Source of the DNA: Deltaproteobacteria bacterium
Lineage (GTDB): Bacteria > Desulfobacterota > Desulfobaccia > Desulfobaccales > 0-14-0-80-60-11
Direction of reading: 5' to 3'
DNA length: 64,000 nt
Assembly (NCBI GenBank): GCA_021813445.1
Contig: JAKAKP010000144.1
Coordinates: 30,447 to 94,446 of the forward strand
In this document: positions 16,507-40,453 of the stretch, in pieces
How positions within the stretch are numbered: the first letter of the stretch is position 1
Layout: each line of letters begins with the position of its first letter
Translations under genes and position numbers: made by a program
Notes under the pieces: model-generated
What the model was told of the DNA's origin: nothing
The model's input: only the letters and a program-made list of their open reading frames with translations
The model's database searches: none

Positions 16507-16642
16507 AAATAGAAATAATTCCAGAACCCTGGAGGGAATGTAGCATTTTTGCCAAGAATTTTCTCCTGATTTTCCTCTGGATTTTCATGGCGCCGCAAGG
16601 CGGCGCCGGGGGCAAGTTGAGCGCACCTGGAGGAGCGGGCAG

Positions 16643-17413
16643 ATGAAGGTGGTCATTTTAGCCGGTGGTCTCGGCACCCGGTTGGCAGAGGAGACCGAAG
16701 TCAAACCCAAGCCCATGGTAGAGATCGGCGGGCGCCCCATCTTGTGGCATATCATGAAGCTCTATGCCCATTACGGCTTCAACGAATTCCTCATTGCCCT
16801 GGGCTACAAAGGGGAGGTCATTAAGCGCTTCTTTCTGGACTACTACCGCATGAACGGCAGCATGACCATTAACCTCTGGAACGGCGATGCCCTCATGCAC
16901 CACAAAAAGGCGGAGGACTGGACGGTGCACCTTCACGACACCGGCATGAACGTCAACACCGGCGGCCGGGTCAAACGCCTGGAGTCCTGCCTGCGCAATG
17001 AGACCTTCATGGTGACCTACGGCGACGGCGTCAGCAACATTAATCTGGACGAACTGCTGAAATTTCACCACGCCCATGGCCGGTTGGCCACCGTCACCGC
17101 GGTGCGGCCCCCGGCCCGCTTCGGAGGCCTGATCTTCGACGGCGACATGGTGGCCCAGTTCACGGAAAAACCCCAGATCGGCGAAGGCTGGATCAACGGC
17201 GGTTTTCTGGTCTTCGAACCCGGGGTCTTCTCTTATTTGAAGGGAGATTTGGCCAGCCTGGAATCGGACGTCCTGGAGCAGTTGGCCGCGGAAGGGCAAC
17301 TGGCAGCCTATCGTCACGGCGACTTTTGGCAATGCATGGATACCCTGAGGGACAAGTTCCTGCTGGAAAACCTCTGGCAAAAGGGAGAACCCCCATGGCG
17401 GGTGTGGCAATGA
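16643..17413 (+). CDS. rfbF: Glucose-1-phosphate cytidylyltransferase
   Basis: [38 protein letters not shown] and overall colinearity with RfbF. There is an ATGA overlap with the next gene. Confidence 0.88.
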
Positions 17414-18432
17414 CCGCCGGGCAAACCCATTCCTTCTGGCAGGACCGCCCCACCCTGGTCACCGGGGCCACCGGTCTTTTAGGGGGCTGGCTGGTGCCGC
17501 GGCTGCTGGCTCAAGGTGCGGACGTGGTCTGCCTGGTGCGGGATTGGGTCCCCCAGAGCGCCTTAATTTCCGGCGACTGGCTCAATCGGGTCAAAACCGT
17601 CCGGGGGGAAATCGAGGATCAGGCGCTCCTGGAACGGGTGCTGGGGGAGTACGAGATCGACACCGTCTTCCATCTGGCCGCCCAGACCATAGTCGGCATC
17701 GCCAATCGCAACCCGGTGTCCACCTTTGCCTCTAATATCGGCGGCACCTGGGCCCTCCTGGAGGCCGCCCGGCGCAGCCCCGGGGTGCGGCAGATCGTCC
17801 TGGCCTCCTCCGATAAAGCTTACGGCGAGCACACCGGCGAGCCCTACCGGGAGGACAATCCCTTGCAGGGACGCCATCCCTACGATGTTTCCAAATCCTG
17901 CGCCGATCTCATTGCCCAGTCTTACGCGACCACTTACGGCCTGCCGGTAGCCGTCACCCGCTGCGGCAATTTTTTCGGCGGCGGCGACCTCAACTGGAAC
18001 CGCCTGGTGCCGGGGACCATTCGCGCCATTCTCCGGGGACAACCGCCGGTCATCCGTTCCGATGGCCGCTACGTGCGGGACTATTTCTACATCGAAGACG
18101 CCGCGGCCGCGTATATGCTCCTGGCCGAAAAGCTGGCGGCCCACCGGGAGCTCAAGGGTCAGGCCTTCAATTTTGCCCACGACACCACTTTGACGGTCCT
18201 GGAACTGGTGGAAGAGATCCTGCACCGCCTGGATTCCAGCCTGACCCCGGTGATCTTGAACGAGGTGCAAAGCGAAATCCTGTACCAGGCTTTGGATGCG
18301 GACAAGGCCCGCCGGGTGCTGGGCTGGCGGCCCAGGTTCTCCCTGGGGGAGGGCTTGACGCGGACCATCTCCTGGTACCGGGATTTTTTCGGGGCCGGGC
18401 AACCGCCGCTGCAGGCGGTTATGGGGAGTTAG
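17410..18432 (+). CDS. rfbG: CDP-glucose 4,6-dehydratase (SDR family)
   Basis: [20 protein letters not shown] and the YDVSKSCAD (YxxxK) motif are present, and the gene sits directly after rfbF. The start was placed at the ATGA overlap (17410). Confidence 0.7.
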
Positions 18433-18438
18433 AAACTG

Positions 18439-18500
18439 GTAGGGTGGGCGTCTCGCCCGCCCAGGCAATTCGCCCAGGCGGAAAGCCTGGGTCACCGGTA
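18439..18500 (+). repeat. Composite double-hairpin repeat of about 62 bp (copy 1 of 3)
   Basis: The sequence gtagggtgggcgtctcgcccgcccagg...cccaggcggaaagcctggg aligns with 39806-39866 and with the reverse complement of 58858-58918. Confidence 0.75.
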
Positions 18501-18538
18501 CAAATACTTCGAACTTTGGGCTTCTTAGAGAAGAAGAC

Positions 18539-19177
18539 ATGATAATTCGCCCCCTGCCAATAGACACCGCCACCTTGATTGAGGCCGAGCCCTTCGAGGA
18601 CCACCGGGGCCTCTTTGCCCGTTTTTTCTGCGCCCAGGAACTGGCCCAGATCTTGGGGGAGCGGCAGATCGTCAACGTCAATTTCTCCTGCACCCGCCAG
18701 GCCGGGGCGGTGCGGGGGATGCATTTCCAATTTGCCCCGCACCAGGAGATGAAGCTGGTGCGCTGTATCCGGGGGGCCGTCTTTGATGTGCTCGTGGACT
18801 TGCGGCCCTCGTCCCCCACTTTTCTTAAGTGGCACGGCGAAGTCCTGTCAGCCGCCAACTTGAGGATGCTCTGCGTGCCTGAGGGGTTTGCCCATGGGTT
18901 CCAGGCCCTGGAGCCCGACAGCGAGGTGCTTTACCTCACCACTGCGTTTTACCAGCCGGACGCGGAAGGGGGCCTCCGCTACGACGACCCGGCCCTGGGC
19001 ATTGAGTGGCCCCGGGAGGTCACGGATATCTCCCGGAAAGACGCGGCCCATCCGCTCCTGCAACCGGGGCAGCAGCCCTTGGAGAGGAATGGGGCGGAGC
19101 GCGGCCCCTGGACTTTAGGATCTAAGGAATCGGTGGGCAGTGCCCACCCTACATTAACTTTGAACTTTGAACCTTGA
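18539..19177 (+). CDS. RmlC-like NDP-4-keto-6-deoxyhexose 3,5-epimerase (cupin)
   Basis: Blocks FEDHRGLFARFF, RGMHFQ, FDVLVDLR and VPEGFAHGF are present. The last ~30 aa are a non-conserved extension that runs through a REP hairpin (VGSAHPTL). Confidence 0.8.
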   Translation: MIIRPLPIDTATLIEAEPFEDHRGLFARFFCAQELAQILGERQIVNVNFSCTRQAGAVRGMHFQFAPHQEMKLVRCIRGAVFDVLVDLRPSSPTFLKWHGEVLSAANLRMLCVPEGFAHGFQALEPDSEVLYLTTAFYQPDAEGGLRYDDPALGIEWPREVTDISRKDAAHPLLQPGQQPLERNGAERGPWTLGSKESVGSAHPTLTLNFEP

Positions 19178-19202
19178 ACTATTTGAAAGAACAGGAGCAA
19201 GC

Positions 19203-20072
19203 GTGAAAGTCTTGGTGAGCGGCGCCACGGGGTTCATTGGCCAGCAGGTCGTGCCCTTCCTGCAGGGCCTGGGCCGGTGCCGCATCCTCGCCAGCGCCAG
19301 GGATGAAGCCAAGCTCCAGGAACTGGGTGCGGATTATGTTGTCTATGACCTCAATCAAGAGCCCCATGATTGTTACGAGCGGCTGGGGCGGCCGGAGGTC
19401 TTGATCCACCTGGCCTGGGAGGGTCTGCCCCATTACCAGGAATCCTTTCACCTGGACCGCAACCTGGTGAACCATTACCGGTTTTTGCAAAGCATGATTG
19501 CGCAAGGGTTGCCCAGCCTGACAGTCACGGGCACCTGCTACGAATACGGGTTGCACAACGGCTGCTTGCCGGAAGAGACGGCTCCCAACCCCACCACCTG
19601 TTACGGCCTGGCCAAGGATGTCCTGCGCCGCCGCCTGGAGGCCCTGCAACAGCAGCATCCCTTCCGGCTGCGCTGGCTCCGCCTTTTCTTTCTTTATGGC
19701 CCAGGCCAGCCGGAACGGACCCTGATGGCCAAAGTGGACCAGGCCCTGGACACAGGGCAGGAGACCTTCGATATGTCCGGGGGCGAGCAGCTCCGGGACT
19801 ATCTCTCCGTGACGGAGGTCGCGGCCCTGATCGCCAAAGTGGCCCTGCAGCCGCGCTATGACGGGATTTTCAACATCTGTTCGGGGCAGCCCATTTCGGT
19901 GCGCCGCCTGGTAGAGGAGCATATCGCCGCCAGGGGCGGCCGGCTGCGCCTGAACCTGGGGGTCTTCCCCTACCCGGCCCATGAACCCCTGGCCTTCTGG
20001 GGCGACCCCAGCCGGCTGCGCCTCGCCGTAGCCGCATTTGAGGAGGAACAGCACCATGCCGCACACCCCTGA
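19203..20072 (+). CDS. NAD-dependent epimerase/dehydratase family 4-ketoreductase
   Basis: GTG start with an AGGAG RBS five nt upstream. VKVLVSGATGFIGQ is the Rossmann motif and the protein is of the RmlD/SDR type. Confidence 0.7.
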   Translation: MKVLVSGATGFIGQQVVPFLQGLGRCRILASARDEAKLQELGADYVVYDLNQEPHDCYERLGRPEVLIHLAWEGLPHYQESFHLDRNLVNHYRFLQSMIAQGLPSLTVTGTCYEYGLHNGCLPEETAPNPTTCYGLAKDVLRRRLEALQQQHPFRLRWLRLFFLYGPGQPERTLMAKVDQALDTGQETFDMSGGEQLRDYLSVTEVAALIAKVALQPRYDGIFNICSGQPISVRRLVEEHIAARGGRLRLNLGVFPYPAHEPLAFWGDPSRLRLAVAAFEEEQHHAAHP

Positions 20073-21324
20073 ATCGAGGCTAACAACCGTAACCGACCGC
20101 CTCCGGGACCGGGAGGTCTACCTCTGGGGAGCCCGTCAAGACGGCCTGAGCATGTGCCGGGTCCTGGAGCGCCAGGGGCGGCGGCCCGCAGGTTTCATCG
20201 ACAGCAGCGTCTCCCTCCAGGGGAAAACCGTCCTGGAGTATCCGGTCAAGGCACCGGCGGAGATCCTCAAGCATAACGGCCACCGGCCCTATATCATCAT
20301 CACCTCCGGCTTTTTCGCGGACGAAATCGCGCTCCAATGCCAGGACGCGGGTTTCACCACGCCCGAGGATTTCATCACCTTCTCGGAAATTCAGCGCTTC
20401 GACTACCAGATCGATATTTCCGGGGCCTGCAACCTCCGCTGCATCTCCTGCCCCCGGGGGAATTTTTCTCCCCAGCCCCGGGCCGGTTTCATGACCGCGG
20501 CCATCTTTGAGCAGGTCCTGGCCAAGATCCTCCGGGAAGACCCCTTTGTGGGCGCGGTCAGCCTCTATAACTGGGGCGAACCCTTGCTAAATCCGGATCT
20601 GGCCGCGATCATCCGCCACGCCAACGCCAAAGGGGTGCACACCGCGGTCTCCAGCAACCTCAATATCCGCAAGGACTTTGCCGAGGTCATCGCCGCCCGC
20701 CCCACCTGGTTCCGGGTCTCGGTGTCCGGCTCCGGGGCCAACTACGAAACCACCCATACCGGCGGTTCCTGGGACCTGTTTCTGAAAAATCTGTACCGGC
20801 TGCGGCAGTTGCAGACGGAACTCCACCCGGACCTCCAGGTGGAAGTCTTTTATCATATCTACCGCCATAACAATGGCGAGGATTTCCGGCTGCTGCAACG
20901 GCTCTGCGAGGAACTTGACTTTACCCTGCGCTTTCGCCACGCGGCCCTGGCCCCCCTGGAAAACATCGAAGCCGTCATCGACGGCAAGCCGCTCAATCCC
21001 CAGGTGCAGCGCACCATGGAGTTGCAGGCCCTGCCGGTCCCGGAAGCCATGGAGATCGCCCGCAGCCAAAAGGACCGGCCCTGCTTTTACGAGCGCTGCC
21101 TCTGGATCACCTGGGACCTCAAGGTGAGCCAGTGCATGGAATGGTTTGACCCCAAGCTCCTGCTGGTGCCGGGGGATTTTTTGTCCACCCCCATGGCAGA
21201 AATCGAAGCTGCCAGGAAGAACAACGCCTTTTGCCGCCACTGTAAGGAAAAGGCCATTCACCGCTGCTACGCGGTTTACGGCGACGAAAAGCTGGTGCAC
21301 GAGCGCCAAAGCGTGGCTTTGTAA
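20056..21324 (+). CDS. Radical SAM enzyme, paralog 1 (N-terminal Rossmann-like module, C-terminal Cys-rich auxiliary-cluster region)
   Basis: CNLRCISCP (CxxxCxxC), YNWGEPLLNP, SSNLN, YHIYRHN, and C-terminal Cys residues (PCFYERC, SQC, CRHC). [10 protein letters not shown] before the ATG at 20056. Confidence 0.8.
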   Translation: MPHTPESRLTTVTDRLRDREVYLWGARQDGLSMCRVLERQGRRPAGFIDSSVSLQGKTVLEYPVKAPAEILKHNGHRPYIIITSGFFADEIALQCQDAGFTTPEDFITFSEIQRFDYQIDISGACNLRCISCPRGNFSPQPRAGFMTAAIFEQVLAKILREDPFVGAVSLYNWGEPLLNPDLAAIIRHANAKGVHTAVSSNLNIRKDFAEVIAARPTWFRVSVSGSGANYETTHTGGSWDLFLKNLYRLRQLQTELHPDLQVEVFYHIYRHNNGEDFRLLQRLCEELDFTLRFRHAALAPLENIEAVIDGKPLNPQVQRTMELQALPVPEAMEIARSQKDRPCFYERCLWITWDLKVSQCMEWFDPKLLLVPGDFLSTPMAEIEAARKNNAFCRHCKEKAIHRCYAVYGDEKLVHERQSVAL

Positions 21325-21337
21325 GGGAGATGCCGTG

Positions 21338-22621
21338 ATGTCGGAATCGAGGCTGAGTTCCACCCCCTTGCAACACCTGAACGGCAGCCGCCCCATTTAT
21401 CTCTGGGGCGCCAGCCAGGCCGGCATGGGCATGCTCTACGCCCTGCGCCGCCAGGGTGTTGACATTACCGGTTTCATCGATAAGCGCAAGGCCCTCCAGG
21501 GCGGCGCCATTTACGACCAGCCGGTGTACAGTCCGGAAGAGGTCTTATACGGGCCGCGGCGGGCCTCCAGGCCTTTCATCATCAACACCACCTTCCAGCA
21601 TAAAAATGAAATCAGCGCGGTCTGTGAGGCCGCGGGCCTGCTCCCCGGTGAGGACTACCTCTATTATGAGGAATTGAGCCCCTTCGATTACCAGGTGGTG
21701 GTCTGCGGCATCTGCAACCTCCGCTGCATCTCCTGCCCCATGGGGAATATGCCGGCAAAGGAGCCCGCGGGCATGATGTCCGCGGCCACCTACGCCCGGG
21801 TCCTGGACAAAATCCTCCAGGAGAATCCTTACCTGGGCATCATCCAGCTCTACAACTGGGGGGAGCCCCTCCTTAATCCGGAGCTGCCGGAAATCATCCG
21901 CCTCACCAATGAGCGGCAGGTGCTTTGCGCGGTCTCCAGCAACCTGAGCCTGACCCGGGATTTCGAGGAAGTCATCCGAGCCCGGCCCGGCTGTTTCCGC
22001 ATTTCTTTGTCAGGTTGGGGCGAAACTTACGCCATCACCCATACCAAAGGCAATTGGAGCCTGGTGCTAAAAAACATGCGTCGCCTCAGTGAGCTGCGGG
22101 CCCGGCACTGCCCGGAGATGCCCGTGGAGGTCACCTACCATCTCTACCGGCACAACCAGAACGACGCCATGAAGATCGGGCTTTTATGCGCGGAGTTGGG
22201 TTTTGTCTTCCGGCCCCACATGGCCGCACTCCTGCCGTTGGATAATGTTGTCACCTATATTAACGGCGGCCAATTGACCCCGGCGGCGGAACAGACCCTG
22301 GAAATCCTGCTCCTCCCCATCGACCAGGCCGTGAAAATGGCGGCCGGGGAAAGACACCTGGCCTGTAATTTTGAGCACGCCATCAATATCGATTGGGACC
22401 TGACCGTCAAACACTGCGGCTTGTACTACAGCCGCGCCGATAACCAGGCTGCGGACTCTTATCTGGAGACCTCTCTGGCCGAGATTATAGCTCGGCGCCG
22501 GACCAGCCGGTTGTGCCGTACCTGTCGGGGGAAAGGCCTCCATCGGTTCTGCCGCCTCTATACCAGCGAGACCCCCGAACTCGAAGAACAAACTCATACC
22601 ATCAGGGAAGCTGCCTCATGA
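21338..22621 (+). CDS. Radical SAM enzyme, paralog 2
   Basis: The same architecture with CNLRCISCP, YNWGEPLLNP, YHLYRHN and CRTC. AAGGGAGA RBS before the ATG at 21338. Confidence 0.8.
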   Translation: MSESRLSSTPLQHLNGSRPIYLWGASQAGMGMLYALRRQGVDITGFIDKRKALQGGAIYDQPVYSPEEVLYGPRRASRPFIINTTFQHKNEISAVCEAAGLLPGEDYLYYEELSPFDYQVVVCGICNLRCISCPMGNMPAKEPAGMMSAATYARVLDKILQENPYLGIIQLYNWGEPLLNPELPEIIRLTNERQVLCAVSSNLSLTRDFEEVIRARPGCFRISLSGWGETYAITHTKGNWSLVLKNMRRLSELRARHCPEMPVEVTYHLYRHNQNDAMKIGLLCAELGFVFRPHMAALLPLDNVVTYINGGQLTPAAEQTLEILLLPIDQAVKMAAGERHLACNFEHAINIDWDLTVKHCGLYYSRADNQAADSYLETSLAEIIARRRTSRLCRTCRGKGLHRFCRLYTSETPELEEQTHTIREAAS

Positions 22622-23910
22622 CCACGGAAAGAACGGCTGCCATCAAGTGTATGGACCTTAACGACCTGGAGGCGCTGCGCCGGGGCCGCCCCGTGTATCT
22701 CTGGGGCGCGTCCATCGTCGGCCACGGCGTCTGCCGGGCTCTGGAGCGCAGCGGCCTGGCCCCGACGGCCTTTCTCGACCGCAGCCCCCGTCTGCGGGGC
22801 AAAAAGGCCCTGGACTACCCGGTCTGGCCCCCGGAGGCCCTGCTGGAGCAGGCCGACGCCCGGGAGAAAGCCTTCATCATCATCGCCTCGGGGCATTATG
22901 AGGATGAAATCGCGGGCAACTGCCGGGAGGCTGGCCTGGAACCGGGGCAGGACTTCATCTCCTCCCGGGCCCTGTCTCCCCTGGACCCCAGTGTGGACAT
23001 CGCCGGGATTTGCAACCTCCGCTGTATCAGTTGTCCCCGGGGCAATATGGCCGAAAAGCCTCCCAAGGGGTTCATGACTCCCGCCACCTTCGAGCTGGTG
23101 CTGGACAAGTTGCTCAAGGAGCTGCCTTTCTTGGGCAATATCCAGCTTTATGCCTGGGGGGAGCCTTTGTTGCACCCCCAGATAGCCGAGATCATCCGCC
23201 TGACTCGGAAGCGCCGGCTCCTGAGCGCCATTTCCACCAACCTGAACGTGCGCCGGGACCTCACCGAGGTGATCCAGGCGCAGCCCGACTGGCTGAAAAT
23301 TTCCGCGTCCGGCTTCGGGGCCAATTACGAGATGACCCATACCGGCGGCAAATGGGACCTGTTCTATAGCAACCTCTTCCGGCTCCAGGAGTTACGGGAA
23401 CGCCACCACCCCAGCATGTATGTGGAGATGAACTACCACCTCTACCGCCATAACCTGGGGGAGGACTACCGGCAAATGGCCCAACTCTGCCAGAAGCTGG
23501 GGTTCGCATTCCGTCCCAATTGGGCCTATCTCTATCCCCTGGACAACGTTCTGGCCTATTGCCAGGGACAGCCCCTGAGCCCGGAGGCCGAACGCACCCT
23601 GGACCTCTTGCTGTTGAGTCTGGATCACGGTCTGGCCCGGGCCCGCAGCCAGGCCCATCTGCCCTGTGCCGAGGCCCGCTGCTTTCCCATTGCCTGGAAT
23701 CTGAACGTGCGTTCCTGCGGCGCGTTTTTTCTCCCCACCGTGGTGGACAACTTTCTGGAAGTGCCTCTCCCGGAAATCCTCCGCCGCCGGGACGCCAGCG
23801 GTATTTGCCAGGAATGTCAGCGCCATGCCCTGCATCGCTTCACCAGCGTCTATCTGGAGGAGGCCATGCCCATTGCTGCCGGCGCCACCCAGCAAGGAGC
23901 CACAGGCTGA
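22618..23910 (+). CDS. Radical SAM enzyme, paralog 3
   Basis: The same architecture with CNLRCISCP, YAWGEPLLHP, YHLYRHN and CQEC. ATGA overlap with paralog 2. Confidence 0.8.
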   Translation: MTTERTAAIKCMDLNDLEALRRGRPVYLWGASIVGHGVCRALERSGLAPTAFLDRSPRLRGKKALDYPVWPPEALLEQADAREKAFIIIASGHYEDEIAGNCREAGLEPGQDFISSRALSPLDPSVDIAGICNLRCISCPRGNMAEKPPKGFMTPATFELVLDKLLKELPFLGNIQLYAWGEPLLHPQIAEIIRLTRKRRLLSAISTNLNVRRDLTEVIQAQPDWLKISASGFGANYEMTHTGGKWDLFYSNLFRLQELRERHHPSMYVEMNYHLYRHNLGEDYRQMAQLCQKLGFAFRPNWAYLYPLDNVLAYCQGQPLSPEAERTLDLLLLSLDHGLARARSQAHLPCAEARCFPIAWNLNVRSCGAFFLPTVVDNFLEVPLPEILRRRDASGICQECQRHALHRFTSVYLEEAMPIAAGATQQGATG

Positions 23911-25178
23911 TGCAGACCTTCCAGGCACATAGTCGGATTCGCCCGGTCCTGGAGCGCCTCTCCGGACGCCCGGTCTATATCTGGGGTGCAGGGCAGCAGG
24001 GCCGGGGCATGGGCCGGGTGCTGGAACGCCAGGGGGTAGAGCTCCGGGGCTACTTGGATTCCAGCCCGCAGTTGCACGGTCGCTCCGCCTTGGGCTATCC
24101 CATCTCCCCGCCCGAGGCGGTCCTGCAGCCCGCCGTCCCCAACGGCAAACCCTTCGTGATCATTGCCTCCTTTTTCTTTGAAAAGGACATCATGGAGCGC
24201 TGCCGCCTGGCCGGCCTGGAAGCAGAGCGCGATTTCATCTCCTACAAGGACCTGAAACCCTTCGATTATGCCATCGACGTCTCCGGGGCCTGCAACCTGC
24301 GCTGCCTCTCTTGCCCCCGGGCCACCCGCAGCCACCGCCACCCGCCGCCGGGGTTCATGACCCCCGGCGTTTTTACCCAGGTCCTGGATAAGATCCTGGA
24401 CGAAGACCCCCTGGTGGGCAATCTCCAGCTTTATCAATGGGGCGAGCCCCTGCTCAACCCCCAGCTGCCGGAAATCCTGGGCCTCGCCAACGCCAGGGGG
24501 CTCCCCTGCGCCCTGTCCAGCAACCTGAATTCCACGACCAACCTGGAGCCGGTCATTGCCGCAGGCCCGGCCTGGTTCCGTATCTCCGTCAGCGGCGTGG
24601 GCCGGGAATACGAGCGCACCCATACCGGGGCCACTTGGGCCAAGTTATTGAAAAACATGGAAAGCCTGGCCGAGTTGCGGGCCCGCCTGCGGCCGGACAT
24701 GAAGACCGAGGTCTACTACCATCTCTACCGCCACAATCGGGACGGCTCCCTGGACGAAGTGAAGCGGCTGTGCGAGCGCTTCGAGTTCGAGCTCCACCCG
24801 GTCTGGGCTTATCTCATCTCCCTGGACGACGTGCTGGAATATCTCGAAGGCGGCGAACTCACCCCCCAGGCCCAAGAGGCCGCAGAGATGCTGGCCCTGG
24901 GTCTGGAGCAAGGCATGGCCCTGGCCCGCAGGGAGATTCGGGAAAAGTGCCTGGTGGACCGGTGCATCCATGTCAATTGGAACCTCACGGTGAGTAACTG
25001 CATGATGTTCTTTTATCCCCAGGACAATATTGCCGCGGCCAATTTTCTGGAAACGCCCCTGGAAGAGATTTTGTCGACCCGGGTCAAAAGCAGCCTCTGC
25101 CGGCGCTGCCGGGCCCAGGCCCTGCACCGCTACTGCAACGTCTACAATACCGAACAGATCGAAGGAGCCGCCGCCTGA
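23910..25178 (+). CDS. Radical SAM enzyme, paralog 4
   Basis: The same architecture with CNLRCLSCP, YQWGEPLLNP, YHLYRHN and CRRC. TGATG overlap with paralog 3. Confidence 0.8.
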   Translation: MQTFQAHSRIRPVLERLSGRPVYIWGAGQQGRGMGRVLERQGVELRGYLDSSPQLHGRSALGYPISPPEAVLQPAVPNGKPFVIIASFFFEKDIMERCRLAGLEAERDFISYKDLKPFDYAIDVSGACNLRCLSCPRATRSHRHPPPGFMTPGVFTQVLDKILDEDPLVGNLQLYQWGEPLLNPQLPEILGLANARGLPCALSSNLNSTTNLEPVIAAGPAWFRISVSGVGREYERTHTGATWAKLLKNMESLAELRARLRPDMKTEVYYHLYRHNRDGSLDEVKRLCERFEFELHPVWAYLISLDDVLEYLEGGELTPQAQEAAEMLALGLEQGMALARREIREKCLVDRCIHVNWNLTVSNCMMFFYPQDNIAAANFLETPLEEILSTRVKSSLCRRCRAQALHRYCNVYNTEQIEGAAA

Positions 25179-25179
25179 A

Positions 25180-26649: not shown

Positions 26650-26712
26650 CCGCAGCTCTTGGGGGACGATTTTAGCAAGTATGCACCTGAACGACCGTAT
26701 AAGGGGAATAAT

Positions 26713-28155: not shown

Positions 28156-29344
28156 AACCAGCCGCGCCTTAACCAGGCCCTGCCCGCAGTGCAGCGGCCG
28201 CCGGGGCCGGGAGCTCAGTCGGCTGCGCTTCCAGGGCTTCGACGACTCACCCCTGGCCGGGGCCTTCTCCCTGGCCGTCTGTGCGGAATGCGGCGCGGCT
28301 TTTTACGATACACCTTCGCAGCAAAGCGATTACGACCGGTATTACCGGGGCAACGCCTATTACTTCACTTCGGCCGCCAGCGGTAGCGGCGGTGCCACGC
28401 CCGCAGACCGGCGGCGTTTTGCAGAACTAGCCCGGCGTCTGGTCCCTTATCTGCCCCGGCAGGACGCGGCCATCTTTGACGTGGGCTGCGCCAAGGGCGG
28501 CCTCCTGGCAGTTCTGGCGGAGCACGGCCATACCCGTCTCTACGGCGTGGACCTGATGCCCGCCTGTATTGATTATGTCCGGAACCACCTGGGGCTGGCC
28601 GCGGACTTCGGCTCGGCCTTGGATCTCCCCTTTCCGGAAGTCCGGGCCGATGTCTTGATTTACTCCCATATCGTCGAGCACGTCATCGACTTGCCCGCGC
28701 TGCTGGCCGCGGCCCGGGAGAAGCTGAGTGACCAGGGGCTGGTCTATGTGGAAGTGCCGGACGCGTCCCGTTACGGGGAAAATTCCCGTTATCCCTACCG
28801 GGACCTGTACCTGGAGCACGTCAACCACTTCGACCGGGACACCCTGGTCGGCCAATTCCAGGCCGGGGGCTTCTCCCTGGTGAGCAGCGGCGGCTTTCTC
28901 CTGGAGCCTTTGCCCCAGGGTCCCGTGCCCTGTCTCTGGGCCATCTTCCGCCGGGGGGATGAGCAGAAACGAACCGCAAGCAACGGTCTGGAAGGGCGGC
29001 TCCGGGACTACCTGGCCTGGTCCCGGCAGCATCCGGCCCTGGGAAAAATCGCCCAACTGGCCTGGCAGCAAACCCCCCTTTACCTCTGGGGGCTCTCCCA
29101 ATACGCCATGCTCCTGCTGGGCCAAACCGACTTGGGCCGCTGCGCCCTCCAGGGGTTGGTGGACCAGGACCCTTACAAGCAGCAGCGGACGGTGGGCGGG
29201 AGGCCGATCCACGCCCCCGAGGTTTTACGGGAGGCCGATCCCCGGGCCGCGGTCCTGGTCACGGCCCTGGGGTACGAGGACCAGATCGCCGCGGCCCTGG
29301 AGGAGATGGGCTTTCGCGGCCTAGTGGTGACGACTGCGGGCTGA
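28133..29344 (+). CDS. Zn-ribbon class I SAM-dependent methyltransferase with a C-terminal Rossmann-like module
   Basis: CPQCSG...CAECG zinc ribbon, IFDVGCAKGG methyltransferase motif I, and a C-terminus (PLYLWGLSQYA...YEDQIAAALEEMGF) homologous to the N-termini of the four radical SAM paralogs. The layout resembles sugar C-methyltransferases. Confidence 0.7.
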   Translation: MSMCSRLETSRALTRPCPQCSGRRGRELSRLRFQGFDDSPLAGAFSLAVCAECGAAFYDTPSQQSDYDRYYRGNAYYFTSAASGSGGATPADRRRFAELARRLVPYLPRQDAAIFDVGCAKGGLLAVLAEHGHTRLYGVDLMPACIDYVRNHLGLAADFGSALDLPFPEVRADVLIYSHIVEHVIDLPALLAAAREKLSDQGLVYVEVPDASRYGENSRYPYRDLYLEHVNHFDRDTLVGQFQAGGFSLVSSGGFLLEPLPQGPVPCLWAIFRRGDEQKRTASNGLEGRLRDYLAWSRQHPALGKIAQLAWQQTPLYLWGLSQYAMLLLGQTDLGRCALQGLVDQDPYKQQRTVGGRPIHAPEVLREADPRAAVLVTALGYEDQIAAALEEMGFRGLVVTTAG

Positions 29345-29430
29345 ACTACGCAAGCATGGGAGACGCGAAACTAAAAGGTACAAATAAGGCCACCGCAGGT
29401 GAAGGACAATGACTAAATACCTCACGGCAG

Positions 29431-30222
29431 ATGGAGACAAATATGTCATATCATAACCAGATCATGGAAGATGCGGGCTTCGAGAAGCAAAAATGGCTGA
29501 TCAACCTGCTGCAACGGGAAAATGTCACCGTCGTCGACGTCGGCGGCCATGTCGGTGAAAGCATCGAAGAATATCGGACGCTATTTCCAGACTGCCGCGT
29601 CTATTCCTTTGAGCCCCATCCCGAATCTTTCATTACCCTGGAACAGCGCTGGGGCCGCTTAAACGGCGTCCACGTCGAGCGGCTGGCATTGGGCGCCAAG
29701 TCCGGAGCCGTGTCTTTTTACGCCACCAGATGTTCTTCCGCTTCCTCCTTGCTGCCCCCGGAAGGCTTCCTCCAGGAACGCAGCGCCAAAAGAAATTATG
29801 ATTATTTGAAAATGGAAGTGCCCATGGACACTTTGGACCACGTCGCCGCCCGCCTTTCTTTGAGCGGCATCGATATTTTGAAAATGGACGTCCAGGGCTC
29901 GGAACTGCAGGTTCTACAAGGCGCGGCAGGCCTCCTGCGGGCATCGCAGATCGACCTTATCTTCTCTGAAGCCCTGTTCGCTGAAACCTATGCGGGGCAG
30001 AGTGATTTTAATGAAATTTGGAGTTACCTAAAGAATTACGGGTATGTGCTTTGGGACCTGTTCCCCTTTGTCCATACGACCCTGGGCCGGTTGTGGACCG
30101 CCAACGCCATCTTTCTAAGCGCCCCCATTGCCGCCCAAATCGACCGCTGCCATCCGCCTGTCTCACCCAGGCCTGCGGACCAAATGGAGTATGGTGCCAA
30201 GAATCTTGCTGATCATTTCTAG
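29431..30222 (+). CDS. FkbM family methyltransferase
   Basis: VVDVGGHVGESIEEY...VYSFEPHPESF...LALGAKSG...LKMDVQGSE is the characteristic FkbM pattern. Confidence 0.8.
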   Translation: METNMSYHNQIMEDAGFEKQKWLINLLQRENVTVVDVGGHVGESIEEYRTLFPDCRVYSFEPHPESFITLEQRWGRLNGVHVERLALGAKSGAVSFYATRCSSASSLLPPEGFLQERSAKRNYDYLKMEVPMDTLDHVAARLSLSGIDILKMDVQGSELQVLQGAAGLLRASQIDLIFSEALFAETYAGQSDFNEIWSYLKNYGYVLWDLFPFVHTTLGRLWTANAIFLSAPIAAQIDRCHPPVSPRPADQMEYGAKNLADHF

Positions 30223-30245
30223 TTGCTCAAGGAGAACTTACCGCC

Positions 30246-33200
30246 ATGCAAGGCCATGAGATTAACCAACACCCCCTGGTCTCCATCGGCATGTTGGTTT
30301 ACAACGGCGAACGATTCCTGGCGCAATCACTCGAATCACTGCTTTCCCAAGAATATAAAAATTTTGAACTCATCATCTCGGACAATGCCTCGGAAGACCG
30401 CTCCGGGGAGATCTGTTTAAAATACCAGGCCCGGGACTCCCGCATTCAATACTCCCGCAATGAAACCAATATGGGGTCAATCTACAACGGCACCAAGGTC
30501 AGGGACCTGGCCCGGGGCAAATACTTCATGTGGGCCTCCGATCATGACCTCTGGCATCCCACCTTACTGACCAAGGCCGTGGCAGTTATGGAAAATGATC
30601 CAGAGGTAATCTTGTGCTATTCCCGGGCCCAGCGGATCGATAAAGAGGGCAATTTCCTCTGCCTGGGCCCCGACTATTTGGATACGCGAGGCATGTCGCC
30701 GCCGGCGCGCTTTCTCCATCTCATCGGTTACCATTGCGGCGGCGAATTGATTTATGGACTTTTCCGCCGGGAAAACCTCAGTCGTATCAAAACGAAAGCA
30801 ATTTGGGCCTCAGATATTTATATCTTATCGGCTTTAGCCCTGGAGGGCACTTTCGTCCACCTGCCCGAGGTGCTTTTTTCCTTGCGCAAGATCCGGGATG
30901 AAGAGATAGAAAGCCACAAGAAGACCCAGGCCCACAACCTGGACCCGGCCAGGACCAAGGAAATGCTGGCCATGGACCTGCATGCGCTCTGGCGGGAATT
31001 GGGGGAAGAATGCCTGTCCGTGGTACAAGGCAGTTCCTTCCCGGACCTGGAGAAAGAGGTTCTGCTGGAGGAAACCAAGAACTGTTTTACCACGCGTTTT
31101 GAGGTGCAATGGCCAGGCTCCCCGGAGGCTGCCGAAAACAAGGGCATCCGTGGCCAGGTTGACGCCCCCGCCCTCCTGACCGATACCGCCGCCAAAGAAG
31201 CCTGGAGAGAACGCCGCGCCGCCAGGCTGGCCCGCAAGGAGGCGAAACAAAGAATTGTGGAGGAGGCAATGCGGCGGCGGCAATATTGGGGGGGACAATG
31301 GCCCCTGGTCTCGGTGATCGTCCCCACTTACAACCGGCCGGATACCCTGGGGGCCGCCCTGCAAAGCATCCTCAATCAAACTTATAAGAACCACGAAGTC
31401 ATCGTGGTCAACGACGGCGGCCTGGACGTGAGCGGCATCGTGGGCTGGCTCAATCAGCAGGGCAACATCACCTACGTCCAGCATGACCGCCGCCGAGGCC
31501 GGGCCGCGGCCTGCAATACCGGCCTGAAACTGGCCCGGGGCCAATATATCGCTTACCTGGATGATGACTCCCTCTTCTACCCCGAGCACCTGGCGGTTCT
31601 GGCAACCGTGCTGGTGGACAGCGAGTACCGGGTGGCTTACACAGACGCGCTTCGGGCCCGTTTAGAGAATCAATGCGGCCGGAATGTGGTCGCCGCCAAA
31701 GACCTGCCTTATTCATATGAGTTTGATCAGGAGCGGTTGCTGGTGGCTAACCAGTTTCCGAGCCTCTGTCTCATGCACGAGAGATCCTGCCTGGAGCAAG
31801 CCGGCCTCTTCGATGAAAGCCTGAGTAGCCATGAGGATTGGGATTTATTGATCCGGCTTTCTTTCCGCGATAAATTTTTCCACATCAAACGGGTCACCTG
31901 CGAGTTCACCCAGGGCCAGGAAGACGACGCCACGGTCGGCCAGAAGCAGGCGGATCTCGTGCGCACCATGGAAATCGTCCATGGCAAGTATCAAGATCAC
32001 CTGCAGGACAAACCGCAGATTCAGGAGCAGCAACGGCAATTCTTGCAGCATCAAAAAGATGCCGCCCAAAGGACCTGCGCCGGATCCAGGCCTGAGACCC
32101 CCAACCCGGATCAACTGCTGCAATTGACCAATGAGGCCCTGGAGCGGGAGGACTGGGAAGCCGCGGAAACCTGTCTCCGGGACCTGATCCGCAGCCACCC
32201 GGACCTTCTGGATGGTTACCTCTCTTTGAGCGACGTCCTCACCTTGCAGGGGAAAGATCAGGACGCCAGGGAAGTCTTGCGGGCCGCCCGGGAGCTGGCC
32301 CCCGAGGCCCTGCCCCTGCTGAAGCGCCTGGGCGCCAATTGCCGGAAGCGGGGTGACTTCAGCGGCGCCTTGACCGCGTTTACCAAGGTTTTGGAGCACA
32401 CCCCCAGAGATACCGAGGCTCTCTGCCAATTAGGCGCCACTTACCTCGATCTGGGGCTCTTGCAGGAGGCCCAGACCCATTTAACCGCAGCGCTGCAGAT
32501 CAATCCCACGAATCTTGATGCCCGGAAGTTACTGGCCCAGGTGGCCCAATACCTGGCAAGTGGCGAGACCTCAGACCCGGTCTCCTCCCAGGCCCCCGCG
32601 CCTGATGCCGGGCACCGCGCTCCGGAAAAGACCGGGACCGGCCAAGCCGGGGAATTCGTCAATATCTGCATGGTTACTTATAACCGCTTGGATTTCACCA
32701 AACAGGCCATCGACGCCCTGGTCCGGCTTACCCACTATCCCTATGTGTTGACGGTGGTGGACAACGGCAGCACCGACGGCACTCCGGCGTATCTGGAAAG
32801 TCTCAAGGCCCGGGGAGTAATTAAAAACCTGATCCTGCTGGATGAAAACCTGGGAGTGGCCAAGGCCTCCAACCTGGCTTGGAGCCTGGAGCCGGAAGCC
32901 GCCTGCTATCTCAAGCTGGACAATGACATCATCCTGCAAAAGGATGGCTGGCTGGAAGACATGGTGGCGGTGATCAATCAGGTGCCTGAAATCGGCGTCC
33001 TGGCTTACAGTTTCGAGCCCCGCTCCTACCCGCTGGAAGTGTGGCACGACGTGACGATACGCATCAAAAAGGGCACCCTGGGGGGGGCCTGCCTGCTGAT
33101 CCCCAAACGCACCGAACGTCTCTTGGGGTATTTTTGCGAAGAATACGGGCTTTACGACGAAGAAGATGCGGATTACGGGGTGAGAGTCCTGGCTGCCAAC

Positions 33201-35873
33201 CTGTTGAACGCCTACATGGAGGATGAACACGTGGGCCTGGCGGAGCCCGGGGCGCCTAACCCCCAGGAAGCCTCCCCTGCCACGGGCGTCCAGGAGGAAA
33301 GCGCCTCCGGTAATTATAAGCAGTTCAAACACCAATCCAAGCGGGCCCACATGCCCTTGTTTATCCGCAATCGCAAGGCTTACTTAAATGGCAGCAAGCC
33401 CTTATTTATACCCAACCCTTATCTGCGGCCGCAGCAGCCCGCCGCGCCTGGCCCGGTGACTGCGCCCAGCCAACCGGAGTCTGATTGCCCCGCTCCTGCA
33501 GGTGAGTCGGACGGCACGCCGCCGCAGTCCCCTCTCTCCTCTGATTTTTCTGAATCTTTGGCGTCCATTATTATTCCGGTTTTCAACAACCTCTCCCTGA
33601 CCCGCCAATGTCTGGAGTCCATCGAGGCCAACACCGATGCCCCCCATGAAATCATCGTGGTGGACAACGGCTCCAGCGACGGCACCCGGGACTATCTGCT
33701 GCAGCTGGAGGCCCAGGGCCGGCTGCGGGTTATCAGCAACCGCCTGAATCTGGGCTTTGCCCGAGCCTCTAACCAGGGGGCCCAGGAGGCCCGGGGCCAT
33801 TTCCTGGTCTTCCTCAACAACGACACCATCGTCCAACCCGGCTGGCTGGAGGAATTGGTGGCCTGCGCCCGGAAAGAAGAGAAGGCCGGGGCCATCGGCG
33901 CCAAGTTGTTATATCTGGATGACACCATTCAGCATGCCGGAGTCGTCTTTAACGAAGAGATCACCCAAATCCTGCATATCTACCAGCATTATGATAAGGA
34001 CCATCCTGCGGTTAACCAAGGGAGGGAGTTCCAGGCCGTCACCGCGGCCTGCATGTTGGTCAGGAAGGACCGCTTCTTTGAAGTGGGCGGCTTCGAAGAG
34101 TGTTACCAGAACGGCTATGAGGACGTGGACCTCTGTTTCAAGCTCAGGGAGCAGGGCTACAAAGTCATTTATAATCCCCGGACCGCGGTCTATCACCTGG
34201 AGTGCCAGACCCAGGGAAGGCACGACCGGGATGCGGAAAACGGCCGCACCTTCAAGTTAAAATGGTCCGGCAAGATCCGGGGTGATGCCGCTAAATATTA
34301 TCAGGAAGACAACATTACCGTGGAAGTGATGGCGCCGCCGGACGCCGATCCCTATATCGTGGCCCATGACGGCAATGACAATGTTTTTTGGCAGGAAGCC
34401 CAAAGATACAGGCAGCAGGGCCTCTGGGATCAAGCCGAAGCCAGCTATCGCCGGGCCTTGGGGTTCAATCCCTTTGACCCCCGGAAGTTAACCATAGGCA
34501 GAGAACTGGTAAATTTGTACGAAACTCAGGGCAAACTTGACCAGGCGCAGAGATTACGCCAGATCATGGCGGCACAGGCCTCTCGCTTTAATCGTCAGCA
34601 ACAGGCGCAGGAGGCCAGCAGGCCCTCTGCCCCGGAGCAGGCAGACGGTGACCGGGCCTGCCGCCAGGGCGAGGCCCCTGCGGTCCAGCGGCCCCGGCCG
34701 CGGCCCCAGGGCCTAGCGCCCGGTAACGGGGGCGGCCCGCCACCGCCTCCGGAGGCAAGCCCCCAGGATTTTTCCTCCAACCCCATGGGGGGGCTATCCT
34801 CCATCATCATTCCGGTGTTCAACAACCTGGCCCTGACCAGACAATGCCTGGAATCCGTGTGGCGTGACACTAATGCCCCCTGTGAAATCATTGTGGTGGA
34901 TAATGCCTCCACCGACTGCACCCGGGACTACCTGCACCGCCTGGAAGCCGCGGGCCGGGTGCGGGTCATCACCAATCGCCGCAACCTGGGTTTTTCCCGG
35001 GCTTCCAACCAGGGCGCCCGGGCGGCCCGGGGCGAATACCTGCTGTTTCTCAATAACGACACCATCGTCCAACCCGGCTGGCTGGAGGCCATGGTGGCCT
35101 GCGCCCGGAAAGATGCCAAGATCGGGGTCGTGGGGGCCAAGCTACTATATCCGGACGACACCATCCAGCATGCCGGCGTGGCCTTCAATGACGAAAAACT
35201 GGTGCATCACATCTATCGCCAATATGACAAAGACCACCCGGCCGTCAATAAGGAAAGGGAATTTCAGGCGGTAACCGCGGCCTGCGCCCTGATCAAAAAA
35301 GACCTGTTTTTCCAGGCAGGCTGCTTCGACGAAAGCTACCAGAACGGCTTTGAAGATGTGGATCTCTGTTTCAGGCTGCGGCAACAGGGCTACAAAGTGG
35401 TCTATACTCCCCGGGCGGTAGTCTACCATCTGGAGAGCAAGACCATGGGCCGGCACGACCGGGATACAGAAAACTCCCGGGTCTTCCGCATGAAATGGCA
35501 GGACAAGATCGTCGGCGATGATCAGAAGTACTATGAAGAAGACCACATTACCATCGAAGTCCTGGGCAAGGAAGGCAATGTCACCATTATTTTTGCCCAT
35601 GACCGCAACGGCAACCCTTTTTGGCAGGACGCGGTGCGGTTCAAACAGCAGGGCCTCTTTAATCAGGCCGAGGCCTCCTATTACCGGGCCTTGAAGTTCA
35701 ATCCCTTCGATCCCCGAAAGGGCTACATTGCCGAGGAGCTGGCCGACCTTTATGAAGCCCAGGGCAAACATGCCCAGGCCGAGGAACTGCGCCAGCAAGC
35801 CGCGCCCCTGACTAATCGCCTGGGAATCCGGAAAGAAACAGGGAAAATCCAGGAGATGGCGGCAGCAGTTTGA
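30246..35873 (+). CDS. Giant multidomain glycosyltransferase: five GT2 domains plus TPR-like regions (1875 aa)
   Basis: GT2 N-terminal signatures lie at about aa 10 (VSIGMLVYNGERF...SDNAS), 352 (VSVIVPTYNRP...VVNDGG), 803 (NICMVTYNRLD...VVDNGSTDGT), 1106 (IIIPVFNNLSLTRQC...VVDNGSSDGT) and 1519 (IIIPVFNNLALTRQC...VVDNASTDCT). TPR-like helices span about aa 620-760, with more after domains 4 and 5. Confidence 0.85.
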   Translation: MQGHEINQHPLVSIGMLVYNGERFLAQSLESLLSQEYKNFELIISDNASEDRSGEICLKYQARDSRIQYSRNETNMGSIYNGTKVRDLARGKYFMWASDHDLWHPTLLTKAVAVMENDPEVILCYSRAQRIDKEGNFLCLGPDYLDTRGMSPPARFLHLIGYHCGGELIYGLFRRENLSRIKTKAIWASDIYILSALALEGTFVHLPEVLFSLRKIRDEEIESHKKTQAHNLDPARTKEMLAMDLHALWRELGEECLSVVQGSSFPDLEKEVLLEETKNCFTTRFEVQWPGSPEAAENKGIRGQVDAPALLTDTAAKEAWRERRAARLARKEAKQRIVEEAMRRRQYWGGQWPLVSVIVPTYNRPDTLGAALQSILNQTYKNHEVIVVNDGGLDVSGIVGWLNQQGNITYVQHDRRRGRAAACNTGLKLARGQYIAYLDDDSLFYPEHLAVLATVLVDSEYRVAYTDALRARLENQCGRNVVAAKDLPYSYEFDQERLLVANQFPSLCLMHERSCLEQAGLFDESLSSHEDWDLLIRLSFRDKFFHIKRVTCEFTQGQEDDATVGQKQADLVRTMEIVHGKYQDHLQDKPQIQEQQRQFLQHQKDAAQRTCAGSRPETPNPDQLLQLTNEALEREDWEAAETCLRDLIRSHPDLLDGYLSLSDVLTLQGKDQDAREVLRAARELAPEALPLLKRLGANCRKRGDFSGALTAFTKVLEHTPRDTEALCQLGATYLDLGLLQEAQTHLTAALQINPTNLDARKLLAQVAQYLASGETSDPVSSQAPAPDAGHRAPEKTGTGQAGEFVNICMVTYNRLDFTKQAIDALVRLTHYPYVLTVVDNGSTDGTPAYLESLKARGVIKNLILLDENLGVAKASNLAWSLEPEAACYLKLDNDIILQKDGWLEDMVAVINQVPEIGVLAYSFEPRSYPLEVWHDVTIRIKKGTLGGACLLIPKRTERLLGYFCEEYGLYDEEDADYGVRVLAANLLNAYMEDEHVGLAEPGAPNPQEASPATGVQEESASGNYKQFKHQSKRAHMPLFIRNRKAYLNGSKPLFIPNPYLRPQQPAAPGPVTAPSQPESDCPAPAGESDGTPPQSPLSSDFSESLASIIIPVFNNLSLTRQCLESIEANTDAPHEIIVVDNGSSDGTRDYLLQLEAQGRLRVISNRLNLGFARASNQGAQEARGHFLVFLNNDTIVQPGWLEELVACARKEEKAGAIGAKLLYLDDTIQHAGVVFNEEITQILHIYQHYDKDHPAVNQGREFQAVTAACMLVRKDRFFEVGGFEECYQNGYEDVDLCFKLREQGYKVIYNPRTAVYHLECQTQGRHDRDAENGRTFKLKWSGKIRGDAAKYYQEDNITVEVMAPPDADPYIVAHDGNDNVFWQEAQRYRQQGLWDQAEASYRRALGFNPFDPRKLTIGRELVNLYETQGKLDQAQRLRQIMAAQASRFNRQQQAQEASRPSAPEQADGDRACRQGEAPAVQRPRPRPQGLAPGNGGGPPPPPEASPQDFSSNPMGGLSSIIIPVFNNLALTRQCLESVWRDTNAPCEIIVVDNASTDCTRDYLHRLEAAGRVRVITNRRNLGFSRASNQGARAARGEYLLFLNNDTIVQPGWLEAMVACARKDAKIGVVGAKLLYPDDTIQHAGVAFNDEKLVHHIYRQYDKDHPAVNKEREFQAVTAACALIKKDLFFQAGCFDESYQNGFEDVDLCFRLRQQGYKVVYTPRAVVYHLESKTMGRHDRDTENSRVFRMKWQDKIVGDDQKYYEEDHITIEVLGKEGNVTIIFAHDRNGNPFWQDAVRFKQQGLFNQAEASYYRALKFNPFDPRKGYIAEELADLYEAQGKHAQAEELRQQAAPLTNRLGIRKETGKIQEMAAAV
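33555..35805 (+). repeat. In-frame tandem duplication of a GT2+TPR module inside the giant GT gene (period 1236 nt)
   Basis: The two modules (about 33555-34565 and 34795-35805) are colinear. They share an identical 34-nt run at 33819-33852 and 35055-35088, followed by an identical 22-nt run. Confidence 0.85.
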
Positions 35874-35990: not shown

Positions 35991-36026
35991 AAAAAGGCCG
36001 GCTCTTTGAGAGCCGGCCTTTTCTTT
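35991..36026. terminator. Bidirectional rho-independent terminator
   Basis: The sequence is aaaaa-ggccggctct-ttg-agagccggcc-ttttcttt, a perfect 10-bp GC stem with an A tract upstream and a T tract downstream. It sits between convergent genes. Confidence 0.85.
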
Positions 36027-39616: not shown

Positions 39617-39631
39617 TTAATTTTTATTACT

Positions 39632-39989: not shown

Positions 39990-40453
<464 letters not shown>

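Follow-up and report, generated by a model that had tools for sequence, protein, structure and literature searches.

A glycan gene cluster without export or priming genes in a deltaproteobacterial genome: a probable island for cytoplasmic protein O-glycosylation of the flagellin type

How a bacterium would put to use a glycan for which neither exporter, nor polymerase, nor priming transferase appears to be encoded is the question raised by a gene cluster (positions 16643–35873) of a Deltaproteobacteria bacterium, lying in a 64,000-nucleotide stretch of contig JAKAKP010000144.1 (assembly GCA_021813445.1, positions 30,447–94,446), the whole of which was analyzed and is referred to here as the window. 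The cluster comprises 13 tightly packed genes, all on the (+) strand, for sugar-nucleotide enzymes, radical S-adenosylmethionine (SAM) enzymes, methyltransferases and glycosyltransferases (GTs). Their families agree with those listed in a preliminary description of this DNA, and inspection of open reading frames (ORFs), Pfam and NCBIfam matches and start codons bore out the gene order and coordinates given there. The cluster is probably an island for cytoplasmic, oligosaccharyltransferase-independent O-glycosylation of protein, of the type known for flagellin. In that case the missing Wzx, Wzy and priming genes would be expected rather than anomalous, because flagellin-type glycosylation is cytoplasmic and carrier-independent. 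The apparent anomaly would thus be explained by a known principle, and the novelty would lie in an island for a cytidine diphosphate (CDP)-activated 6-deoxyhexose that is widespread across phyla and contains three to four radical SAM orthogroups of its own together with a cobalamin radical SAM enzyme.

The lack of export, polymerase and priming genes was already noted in the preliminary description, and Pfam scans of the large ORFs concur, finding no Wzx, Wzy, Wzm/Wzt, synthase or WbaP/WecA-type protein in the 64-kb window; two of these ORFs (10732–11961 and 38420–39112) have no family match. All 13 cluster proteins were free of membrane-like segments in a hydropathy scan, which counted 12 in the neighbouring ArnT/PMT-like GT-C glycosyltransferase (14680–16506), and the encoded pathway would therefore be entirely cytoplasmic. 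Within the window, the cluster combines nucleotide-sugar genes with soluble GTs only, and with no priming enzyme, flippase or oligosaccharyltransferase. For comparison, a profile of the four radical SAM paralogs was used to retrieve 64 loci from one-genome-per-species contigs, and the window proteins were mapped onto them; about 30 of these related loci share the core gene order described below. These data bear upon the conventional alternative, in which the product decorates a lipid-linked surface polysaccharide or lipopolysaccharide, with the priming enzyme, flippase or ATP-binding cassette (ABC) exporter and ligase encoded elsewhere in the genome, or with transfer performed by the GT-C enzyme. 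Such a role would suit the CDP-6-deoxyhexose genes, which are classic O-antigen genes, the location of the GT-C and LptF/G permease genes directly upstream, and the annotation of one homolog of the largest cluster protein as an 'O-antigen biosynthesis protein'. Nevertheless it is quite improbable, since no cluster protein has a membrane segment, the 25 most frequent families in a Pfam census of the flanks of 24 related loci (137 ORFs) include none for export or priming, and the tetratricopeptide repeats (TPR) and flagellin adjacency described below would be left without a role. In particular, the GT-C enzyme, to which the product had been suggested to be handed, was rejected as a part of the system, as none of the ~30 related loci has a homolog of it next to the module.

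The largest protein, encoded by the last gene of the cluster (30246–35873), is a soluble 1875-residue giant with five GT2 stretches (Pfam Glycos_transf_2) starting near residues 16, 356, 808, 1107 and 1519, and with TPR blocks, matched by several TPR families, at approximately 620–770, 1390 and 1800–1855. Having no membrane segment, it is not a membrane synthase. Its last ~350 residues, a GT2 domain with a short TPR tail, are a tandem duplicate of the preceding unit (33543–35870, 67% amino-acid identity). Homologs of the giant number 582 at E ≤ 1e-20, and many of these (P0130–P0132, P0135, P0137 and others, 1500–3200 residues long) fuse GT2 and TPR to a B12-radical SAM, class I methyltransferase or GT4 domain. 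In the manner of a Rosetta stone, such fusions hint that glycan assembly and cobalamin radical SAM chemistry go together. Companion enzymes of similar build, GT2–TPR proteins or three TPR–GT41 proteins, are found in further related loci. A TPR docking module on the transferase has a precedent, as flagellin is glycosylated in the cytoplasm from soluble nucleotide sugars by sequential soluble GTs, with no lipid carrier or oligosaccharyltransferase, and the transferase FlmG binds flagellin via its TPR domain (PMC7591256). By analogy, the TPR blocks of the giant would dock the acceptor protein as in FlmG, and the giant, together with a soluble GT4 enzyme (25180–26649, GT-B fold, Pfam Glycos_transf_1 E = 5e-20), would transfer and extend sugars on Ser/Thr of this acceptor in the cytoplasm. 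The acceptor, most likely flagellin, would leave through the flagellar export apparatus; as soluble, cytoplasmic protein glycosylation does not need export, polymerase or priming genes, a flippase, polymerase, ABC exporter, priming phosphoglycosyl transferase and ligase would all be superfluous.

Flagellin as the acceptor is suggested by related loci, in which flagellar filament genes lie upstream of the module in 4 of the ~20 cases for which 4 kb or more of upstream sequence is available. The four genomes are unrelated, and around 1% would be expected for a random 20-kb window, a figure that is our own rough estimate rather than a computed value. In Thiorhodococcus minor the module is directly downstream, on the same strand, of flgK, a flagellin-like gene, fliT and a gene for a TPR protein, and in Syntrophus sp. 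SW.010 a GT2–TPR gene, fliC, flaG, fliD and fliS are followed by rfbF and the genes after it, all on one strand. A gene for a 451-residue flagellin immediately precedes rfbF on the same strand in a Methylococcaceae metagenome-assembled genome (MAG), and in a close relative with a long contig (Ga0307423_1000088, JGI), which is 71% identical and has all four paralogs, the module shares its strand with two flagellin genes that lie ~4 kb before the rmlC-like first sugar gene and end ~2.9 kb from it. A homolog of the giant itself is found in Geobacter sulfurreducens KN400 (ADI85775.2, 2597 residues, 'multiple glycosyl transferase domain and TPR domain protein'; CP002031.1, ~3.20–3.23 Mb), within an rfbF–dehydratase–rmlC–C-methyltransferase–aminotransferase cluster that continues with two more GTs and then flbD–motA–motB, on the same strand. 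The fallback offered in the preliminary description, a system for glycosylation of either protein or lipid, can accordingly be narrowed in favour of protein, on the strength of the absent membrane segments, the TPR blocks of the giant, flagellin adjacency in four genomes and the published precedent (PMC7591256).

The sugar to be transferred is suggested by the first four genes, initially described as a CDP-6-deoxyhexose pathway. By family assignment the product of rfbF/ddhA (16643–17413, Pfam NTP_transferase, a GGAGGAG ribosome-binding site before the ATG) is a glucose-1-phosphate cytidylyltransferase that makes CDP-glucose, passing the cutoff of the TIGR02623 equivalog (366.5 versus 300.25 bits). 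The rfbG-like gene that follows (17410–18432, its ATG overlapping the rfbF stop codon; Pfam Epimerase and GDP_Man_Dehyd) encodes a nucleoside diphosphate (NDP)-glucose 4,6-dehydratase, most likely acting on CDP-glucose; its best NCBIfam model is the CDP-glucose 4,6-dehydratase TIGR02622, with 217.5 bits under a cutoff of 278.45, followed by the deoxythymidine diphosphate (dTDP)-glucose dehydratase model with 177 bits. Next come an RmlC-type NDP-4-keto-6-deoxyhexose 3,5-epimerase (18539–19177; TIGR01221, 163.1 bits, exceeding the 155.75 cutoff; Pfam dTDP_sugar_isom E = 2e-59), and a short-chain dehydrogenase/reductase (SDR) of the NAD-dependent epimerase/dehydratase family (19203–20072; Pfam Epimerase E = 4e-24), which succeeds rmlC in nearly all related loci. 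In the case of rfbF and rmlC these matches support the pathway, which for the dehydratase and SDR is plausible. The original designation of the latter as a reductase is tentative: it is a putative 4-ketoreductase, but its nearest solved relatives, MoeE5 and uridine diphosphate (UDP)-glucose 4-epimerase, are 4-epimerases, and it could instead be an epimerase. Together, the dehydratase, RmlC-type epimerase and SDR would convert CDP-glucose to an L-series CDP-6-deoxyhexose, rhamnose- or talose-like. A CDP-3,6-dideoxyhexose pathway, for its part, would call for the pyridoxamine phosphate-dependent dehydrase RfbH (E1) and the reductase RfbI (E3), and no protein of the DegT/aminotransferase fold or of E3 type was found in the cluster.

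Four radical SAM genes follow (paralogs 1–4 at 20056–21324, 21338–22621, 22618–23910 and 23910–25178, respectively). Their products are true paralogs, at 43–45% identity to the first over the full length, and each combines an extra N-terminal domain with a CxxxCxxC radical SAM core and a Cys-rich C-terminal region. The CxxxCxxC triad (C125/C129/C132) and four C-terminal cysteines (C343/C360/C393/C396) are invariant in 43 family members, paralog 3 included with all seven cluster ligands; the latter four are as expected of an auxiliary cluster of the SPASM or twitch type. A profile search of PDB sequences gave BtrN as best match (E = 1e-7), and an AlphaFold model of paralog 1, with a predicted local distance difference test score of 92.3, has a partial TIM-barrel fold with Foldseek neighbours BlsE, anSME, SkfB, CteB, SuiB, BtrN and DesII (probability 1.0 to BlsE, anSME, SkfB, BtrN and DesII). 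Sequence motif, Cys-rich C-terminal domain and partial TIM barrel thus all correspond to the SPASM/twitch class. The neighbours mix sugar- and nucleoside-tailoring enzymes with peptide maturases, and identity of the model to solved structures is 13–18%. No NCBIfam equivalog is approached by the paralogs (DesII, for example, scores 20 bits with a cutoff of 450), the weak matches of paralog 4 to NeuD_NnaD and DesII both having E = 2e-4.

A clue to the substrate comes from the extra N-terminal domain, a small Rossmann-like fold of ~115 residues. Its best matches, all marginal, are 3nkl (a UDP-quinovosamine dehydrogenase fragment), the N-terminal domains of the nucleotide-sugar acyltransferases VioB, PglB/PglD and PerB, the Rex protein, and the dTDP-sugar C-methyltransferases TcaB9 and KijD1. 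Scanning the N-terminal domains of the four proteins against Pfam at relaxed threshold gave a marginal PglD_N match alone, and the window's copies did not yield the PF22674 (C2185-like_N) match that relatives have on record. The likeness of this domain favours a nucleotide-sugar substrate without proving it, and the three to four radical SAM enzymes would tailor the sugar at unactivated positions. The family, all of whose members carry generic source names, comprises 478 representative clusters (50% identity) at E ≤ 1e-30 in a library of 1.8 billion proteins, and its combination of a SPASM/twitch-class core with a small domain resembling nucleotide-sugar enzymes is the new part of the system. 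Our literature searches found no report that ties flagellin glycosylation to radical SAM enzymes or to CDP-sugars, and nothing relevant on CDP-glucose in connection with radical SAM enzymes or on flagellin glycosylation in Geobacter. More tentatively, and as a possibility toward which we lean less than toward its opposite, the paralogs could be a new and widespread nucleotide-sugar-tailoring radical family which, with the cobalamin radical SAM enzyme, builds an unprecedented 6-deoxyhexose (e.g., multiply epimerised, deoxygenated or C-alkylated at unactivated carbons) on flagellar filaments, in what would be the first radical-SAM-dependent and the first CDP-sugar-based flagellin glycan pathway.

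The cobalamin-binding radical SAM protein (26713–28155) has the N-terminal B12-binding domain (PF02310, E = 2e-24) and radical SAM domain (PF04055, E = 3e-23) that define class B. Its nearest solved relatives are AprD4, TsrM and TokK, no specific NCBIfam equivalog was reached, and it is a candidate methylase or AprD4-like dehydratase acting on the sugar. The overlapping downstream gene (28133–29344) encodes a SAM methyltransferase whose N terminus resembles a zinc ribbon (CxxC...CxxC), followed by a class I domain (Methyltransf_23, E = 6e-22) and, at the C terminus, a weak match below the cutoff (E = 9e-4) to Methyltransf_14, a domain of the TylC3/TcaB9-type NDP-hexose C-methyltransferases. 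A TcaB9-like C-methyltransferase was considered for this protein and found no support from a sequence search against solved structures, which yielded no close relative and recovered neither TcaB9 nor KijD1. It is followed by an FkbM-family methyltransferase (29431–30222; Pfam Methyltransf_21 E = 2e-26; TIGR01444). All three enzymes would modify the sugar further. The abundance of radical SAM, B12-radical SAM and methyltransferase functions is in itself typical of natural-product tailoring, and BtrN, BlsE, DesII and AprD4, the closest solved relatives, all stem from antibiotic pathways, so that we also weighed a small glycoconjugate, either soluble or anchored in lipid, that is kept in the cytoplasm or leaves via an unrelated exporter; glycolipids, glycosylated natural products and polymethylated polysaccharides inside the cell would be examples. 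Such a product is highly improbable, given that no aglycone genes (polyketide synthase, nonribosomal peptide synthetase, cyclitol or lipid) are conserved with the module, that five GT2 domains with TPR suggest the building of an oligosaccharide on protein, and that the flagellin linkage argues against it.

Comparison of the ~30 related loci reveals a common order of rfbF, dehydratase, rmlC, SDR, rSAM1, an optional rSAM2, rSAM3, rSAM4 and GT4, where rSAM denotes the radical SAM paralogs. The GT4 gene always comes directly after the paralogs, with the succession rSAM–rSAM–rSAM–GT4 preserved throughout, and the B12-radical SAM, Methyltransf_23 and FkbM genes usually come after this core. Carriers include Desulfobacterota, Chromatiales (Thiorhodococcus and Allochromatium), Competibacteraceae, Methylococcaceae, Mariprofundus, Planctomycetota (Pirellulaceae/Thermoguttaceae) and Fibrobacterota. 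In the closest relative (L002, Deltaproteobacteria MAG WY2.bin14), the region from rmlC to GT4 is collinear at 87–89% nucleotide identity, rSAM2 has suffered a ~770-bp deletion corresponding to window positions 21807–22577, and the genes after GT4 comprise other methyltransferases and a giant with a 74% identical N-terminus, with neither the B12-radical SAM nor the FkbM gene. Paralog 2, which is also missing or relocated in many other loci, may be dispensable. The collinear core and replaced tail of this locus indicate that the core is stable and the tail a variable, swappable cassette. This fits a drop in G+C content at 29000–31000, where the FkbM gene and the first part of the gene for the giant reach ~0.56 versus 0.62–0.65 in the radical SAM genes, which itself suggests a mosaic origin for the 3' part of the cluster. 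In the flank census, GT2 (12 ORFs) and RMNT_CmcI, a rhamnosyl O-methyltransferase-like family (11), were followed by radical SAM (7), TPR (6), the C-methyltransferase C-terminal domain (6), FkbM (5) and GT41 (4). The wider contexts vary, the module lying beside a plasmid Rep gene, GGDEF/EAL or PilZ genes, or on a plasmid. Specifically, a Rep3-type replication initiator adjoins it in a Competibacter MAG (L015, 1265–2776), and a 65-kb plasmid of Deltaproteobacteria bacterium Smac51 (L016/L026, CP026658.1) harbours two copies of the radical SAM blocks. Both contexts point to horizontal mobility of the island.

Several observations weigh against the proposal of a sugar-tailoring, flagellin-directed island. 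No flagellar gene was found in the 64-kb window, nor to its right, where the nuo operon and unrelated genes lie; roughly 16 of the 20 related loci have none within 10 kb, and phmmer searches with flagellar proteins located none further within that distance in the remaining full-module loci. Some carriers are MAGs assigned to Sandaracinaceae and Fibrobacteria, which are not expected to be flagellated, though MAG labels are unreliable. Enzymes that pair TPR with GT2 or GT41 can also act on non-flagellin proteins. With regard to the radical SAM enzymes, the N-terminal domain shows a marginal resemblance to nucleotide-sugar enzymes (E = 8e-4 to 5e-2, template-modelling score ~0.55–0.6), and the SPASM-type relatives include the peptide maturases anSME, SkfB and SuiB, making a protein substrate possible. 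The same soluble, TPR-guided O-glycosylation from a CDP-sugar might in this organism be directed at a non-flagellar acceptor, such as an adhesin or autotransporter, a pilin-like, S-layer or cytoplasmic protein. The absence of flagellar genes from the window and from most related loci, the possibility that some carriers are non-flagellated, the varied plasmid Rep, GGDEF/EAL, PilZ and plasmid contexts, the generic nature of TPR–GT41 enzymes as protein glycosyltransferases and the presence of GT9, a family that also includes protein heptosyltransferases, in the Geobacter cluster all speak for this. Still, it is rather unlikely, because flagellins are the only conserved neighbours able to serve as acceptors, and no other potential acceptor recurs in the flank census.

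At the level of gene organization, junctions read with the most plausible start codons give a compact, operon-like layout, with four stop/start overlaps of the ATGA/TGATG style and gaps of at most 63 nt elsewhere. The two exceptions are those originally pointed out, of 106 nt (18433–18538) and 86 nt (29345–29430), before the genes for the RmlC-type epimerase and the FkbM enzyme, respectively. The longer spacer contains two GC-rich hairpins and folds strongly on the (+) strand, with a minimum free energy of -48.3 kcal/mol and z = -4.46. Its initial identification as a repetitive extragenic palindromic (REP) element is unverified, as this would require multiple dispersed copies: neither hairpin has a convincing second copy in the 64-kb window at up to 3 mismatches, and Rfam has no match there at the gathering threshold. 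At 35991–36026, where a strong bidirectional terminator was described, lies a hairpin that resembles an intrinsic terminator in both directions and is common to the convergent H+-pyrophosphatase gene. An A-run and a T-run flank its GC-rich stem of 9 bp, and it folds well (-28.9 kcal/mol, z = -3.9). It was not listed by a terminator consensus scan, probably owing to the lengthening of the stem by these A/T runs. Upstream, the 136-nt divergent intergenic region contains TGGAGGGAATGTAGCA (16531–16546), which has the GG-N10-GC spacing of a sigma-54 promoter and matches the consensus poorly. This loose motif before rfbF was not counted as evidence of such a promoter, and no exact sigma-54 or sigma-28 consensus occurs in the 64-kb window.

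The remaining window genes are housekeeping or miscellaneous, among them a histidine kinase, fmt/def, LptF/G, H+-pyrophosphatase, a split transketolase, Ctp proteases, Der and nuo. The transketolase, divided into N-terminal and pyrimidine/C-terminal halves on two genes, is located 10 kb downstream of the cluster (46095–47874). One related locus has a similar split enzyme amid its sugar genes (L069, 1549–3307), and a full-length one borders the block of another (L072, 1–508). Such recurrence is possibly a coincidence, or possibly reflects a two-carbon branching function in some islands. Two segments are low in G+C. One (5000–7100, ~0.50) includes a gene of the AbiTii abortive infection family (6112–7020) adjoining a PAP2 phosphatase and may be a small defence islet; the other (38000–41500, 0.47–0.48) holds the ORF without family at 38420–39112 and MauE/DoxX-like and rhodanese genes. 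Finally, positions 54832–56445 encode a streptopain-like Peptidase_C10 protein that starts with a Spi inhibitor-like domain and also has a CarboxypepD_reg domain; such a protein is unusual in bacteria that are not host-associated.

If the flagellin-type reading is right, it provides a simple answer to the puzzle of a glycan locus without an exit, and one that could be reused in annotating 'orphan' glycan clusters of environmental genomes. It would also extend flagellin glycosylation past nonulosonic acids and dTDP-rhamnose, to CDP-sugars and to the radical chemistry of cobalamin and SPASM/twitch enzymes. The radical SAM family is a target for enzymology in its own right, offering conserved orthogroups, a confident model, a likely substrate class and cultured carriers (Thiorhodococcus minor and Allochromatium warmingii), and soluble oligosaccharyltransferase-independent systems with modular multi-GT proteins are attractive for glycoengineering.

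Among known systems, the O-antigen pathways of Salmonella and Yersinia for CDP-6-deoxy and 3,6-dideoxyhexoses (DdhA/RfbF, DdhB/RfbG) have the same first two steps, from glucose-1-phosphate to CDP-glucose and on to CDP-4-keto-6-deoxyglucose. Unlike them, the cluster has no RfbH/RfbI 3-deoxygenation genes and no Wzx, Wzy or WbaP, and it includes an RmlC-type epimerase. A parallel for the sugar may be the CDP-vinelose (6-deoxy-3-C-methyl-2-O-methyl-L-talose) of Azotobacter vinelandii: rfbF, dehydratase, rmlC, reductase and methyltransferases would be expected to yield a sugar of this kind, a 6-deoxyhexose of the L-series that is activated by CDP and methylated at both C and O. This comparison, offered as a lead, leaves the radical SAM enzymes unexplained, and we know of no gene cluster for CDP-vinelose and no link between it and the module. 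For the paralogs the nearest counterparts are BtrN, BlsE and DesII, which are among their best sequence and structure matches and likewise join a CxxxCxxC core to a Cys-rich region for an auxiliary cluster; the paralogs differ in their low identity to these enzymes (15–18%), in the additional ~115-residue N-terminal domain and in forming 3–4 conserved tandem paralog groups. Flagellin islands of Pseudomonas syringae and P. aeruginosa, for rhamnose and viosamine, direct the synthesis of partly methylated 6-deoxyhexose O-glycans by large soluble GTs encoded beside sugar-nucleotide genes; they differ from the window in using dTDP-sugars, in having no known radical SAM enzymes and in adjoining fliC. 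The G. sulfurreducens KN400 cluster shares with the window rfbF, dehydratase, rmlC, methyltransferases and the homologous giant soluble GT2/TPR protein, all on the same strand, but is situated beside flbD–motA–motB, and an amino-sugar branch (aminotransferase, WbqC and ATP-grasp) replaces the SDR and radical SAM paralogs. The Caulobacter crescentus FlmG system resembles the cluster in being soluble and cytoplasmic, with nucleotide-sugar genes, a TPR-bearing GT and no lipid carrier, flippase or oligosaccharyltransferase (PMC7591256). FlmG itself is a single TPR and GT-B protein that transfers pseudaminic acid from its cytidine monophosphate (CMP) form, and its system is without the radical SAM enzymes of the window. 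Likened to it by architecture, the island described here would instead employ a CDP-6-deoxyhexose derivative as donor, with a GT4 enzyme and a five-GT2 giant as its transferases.

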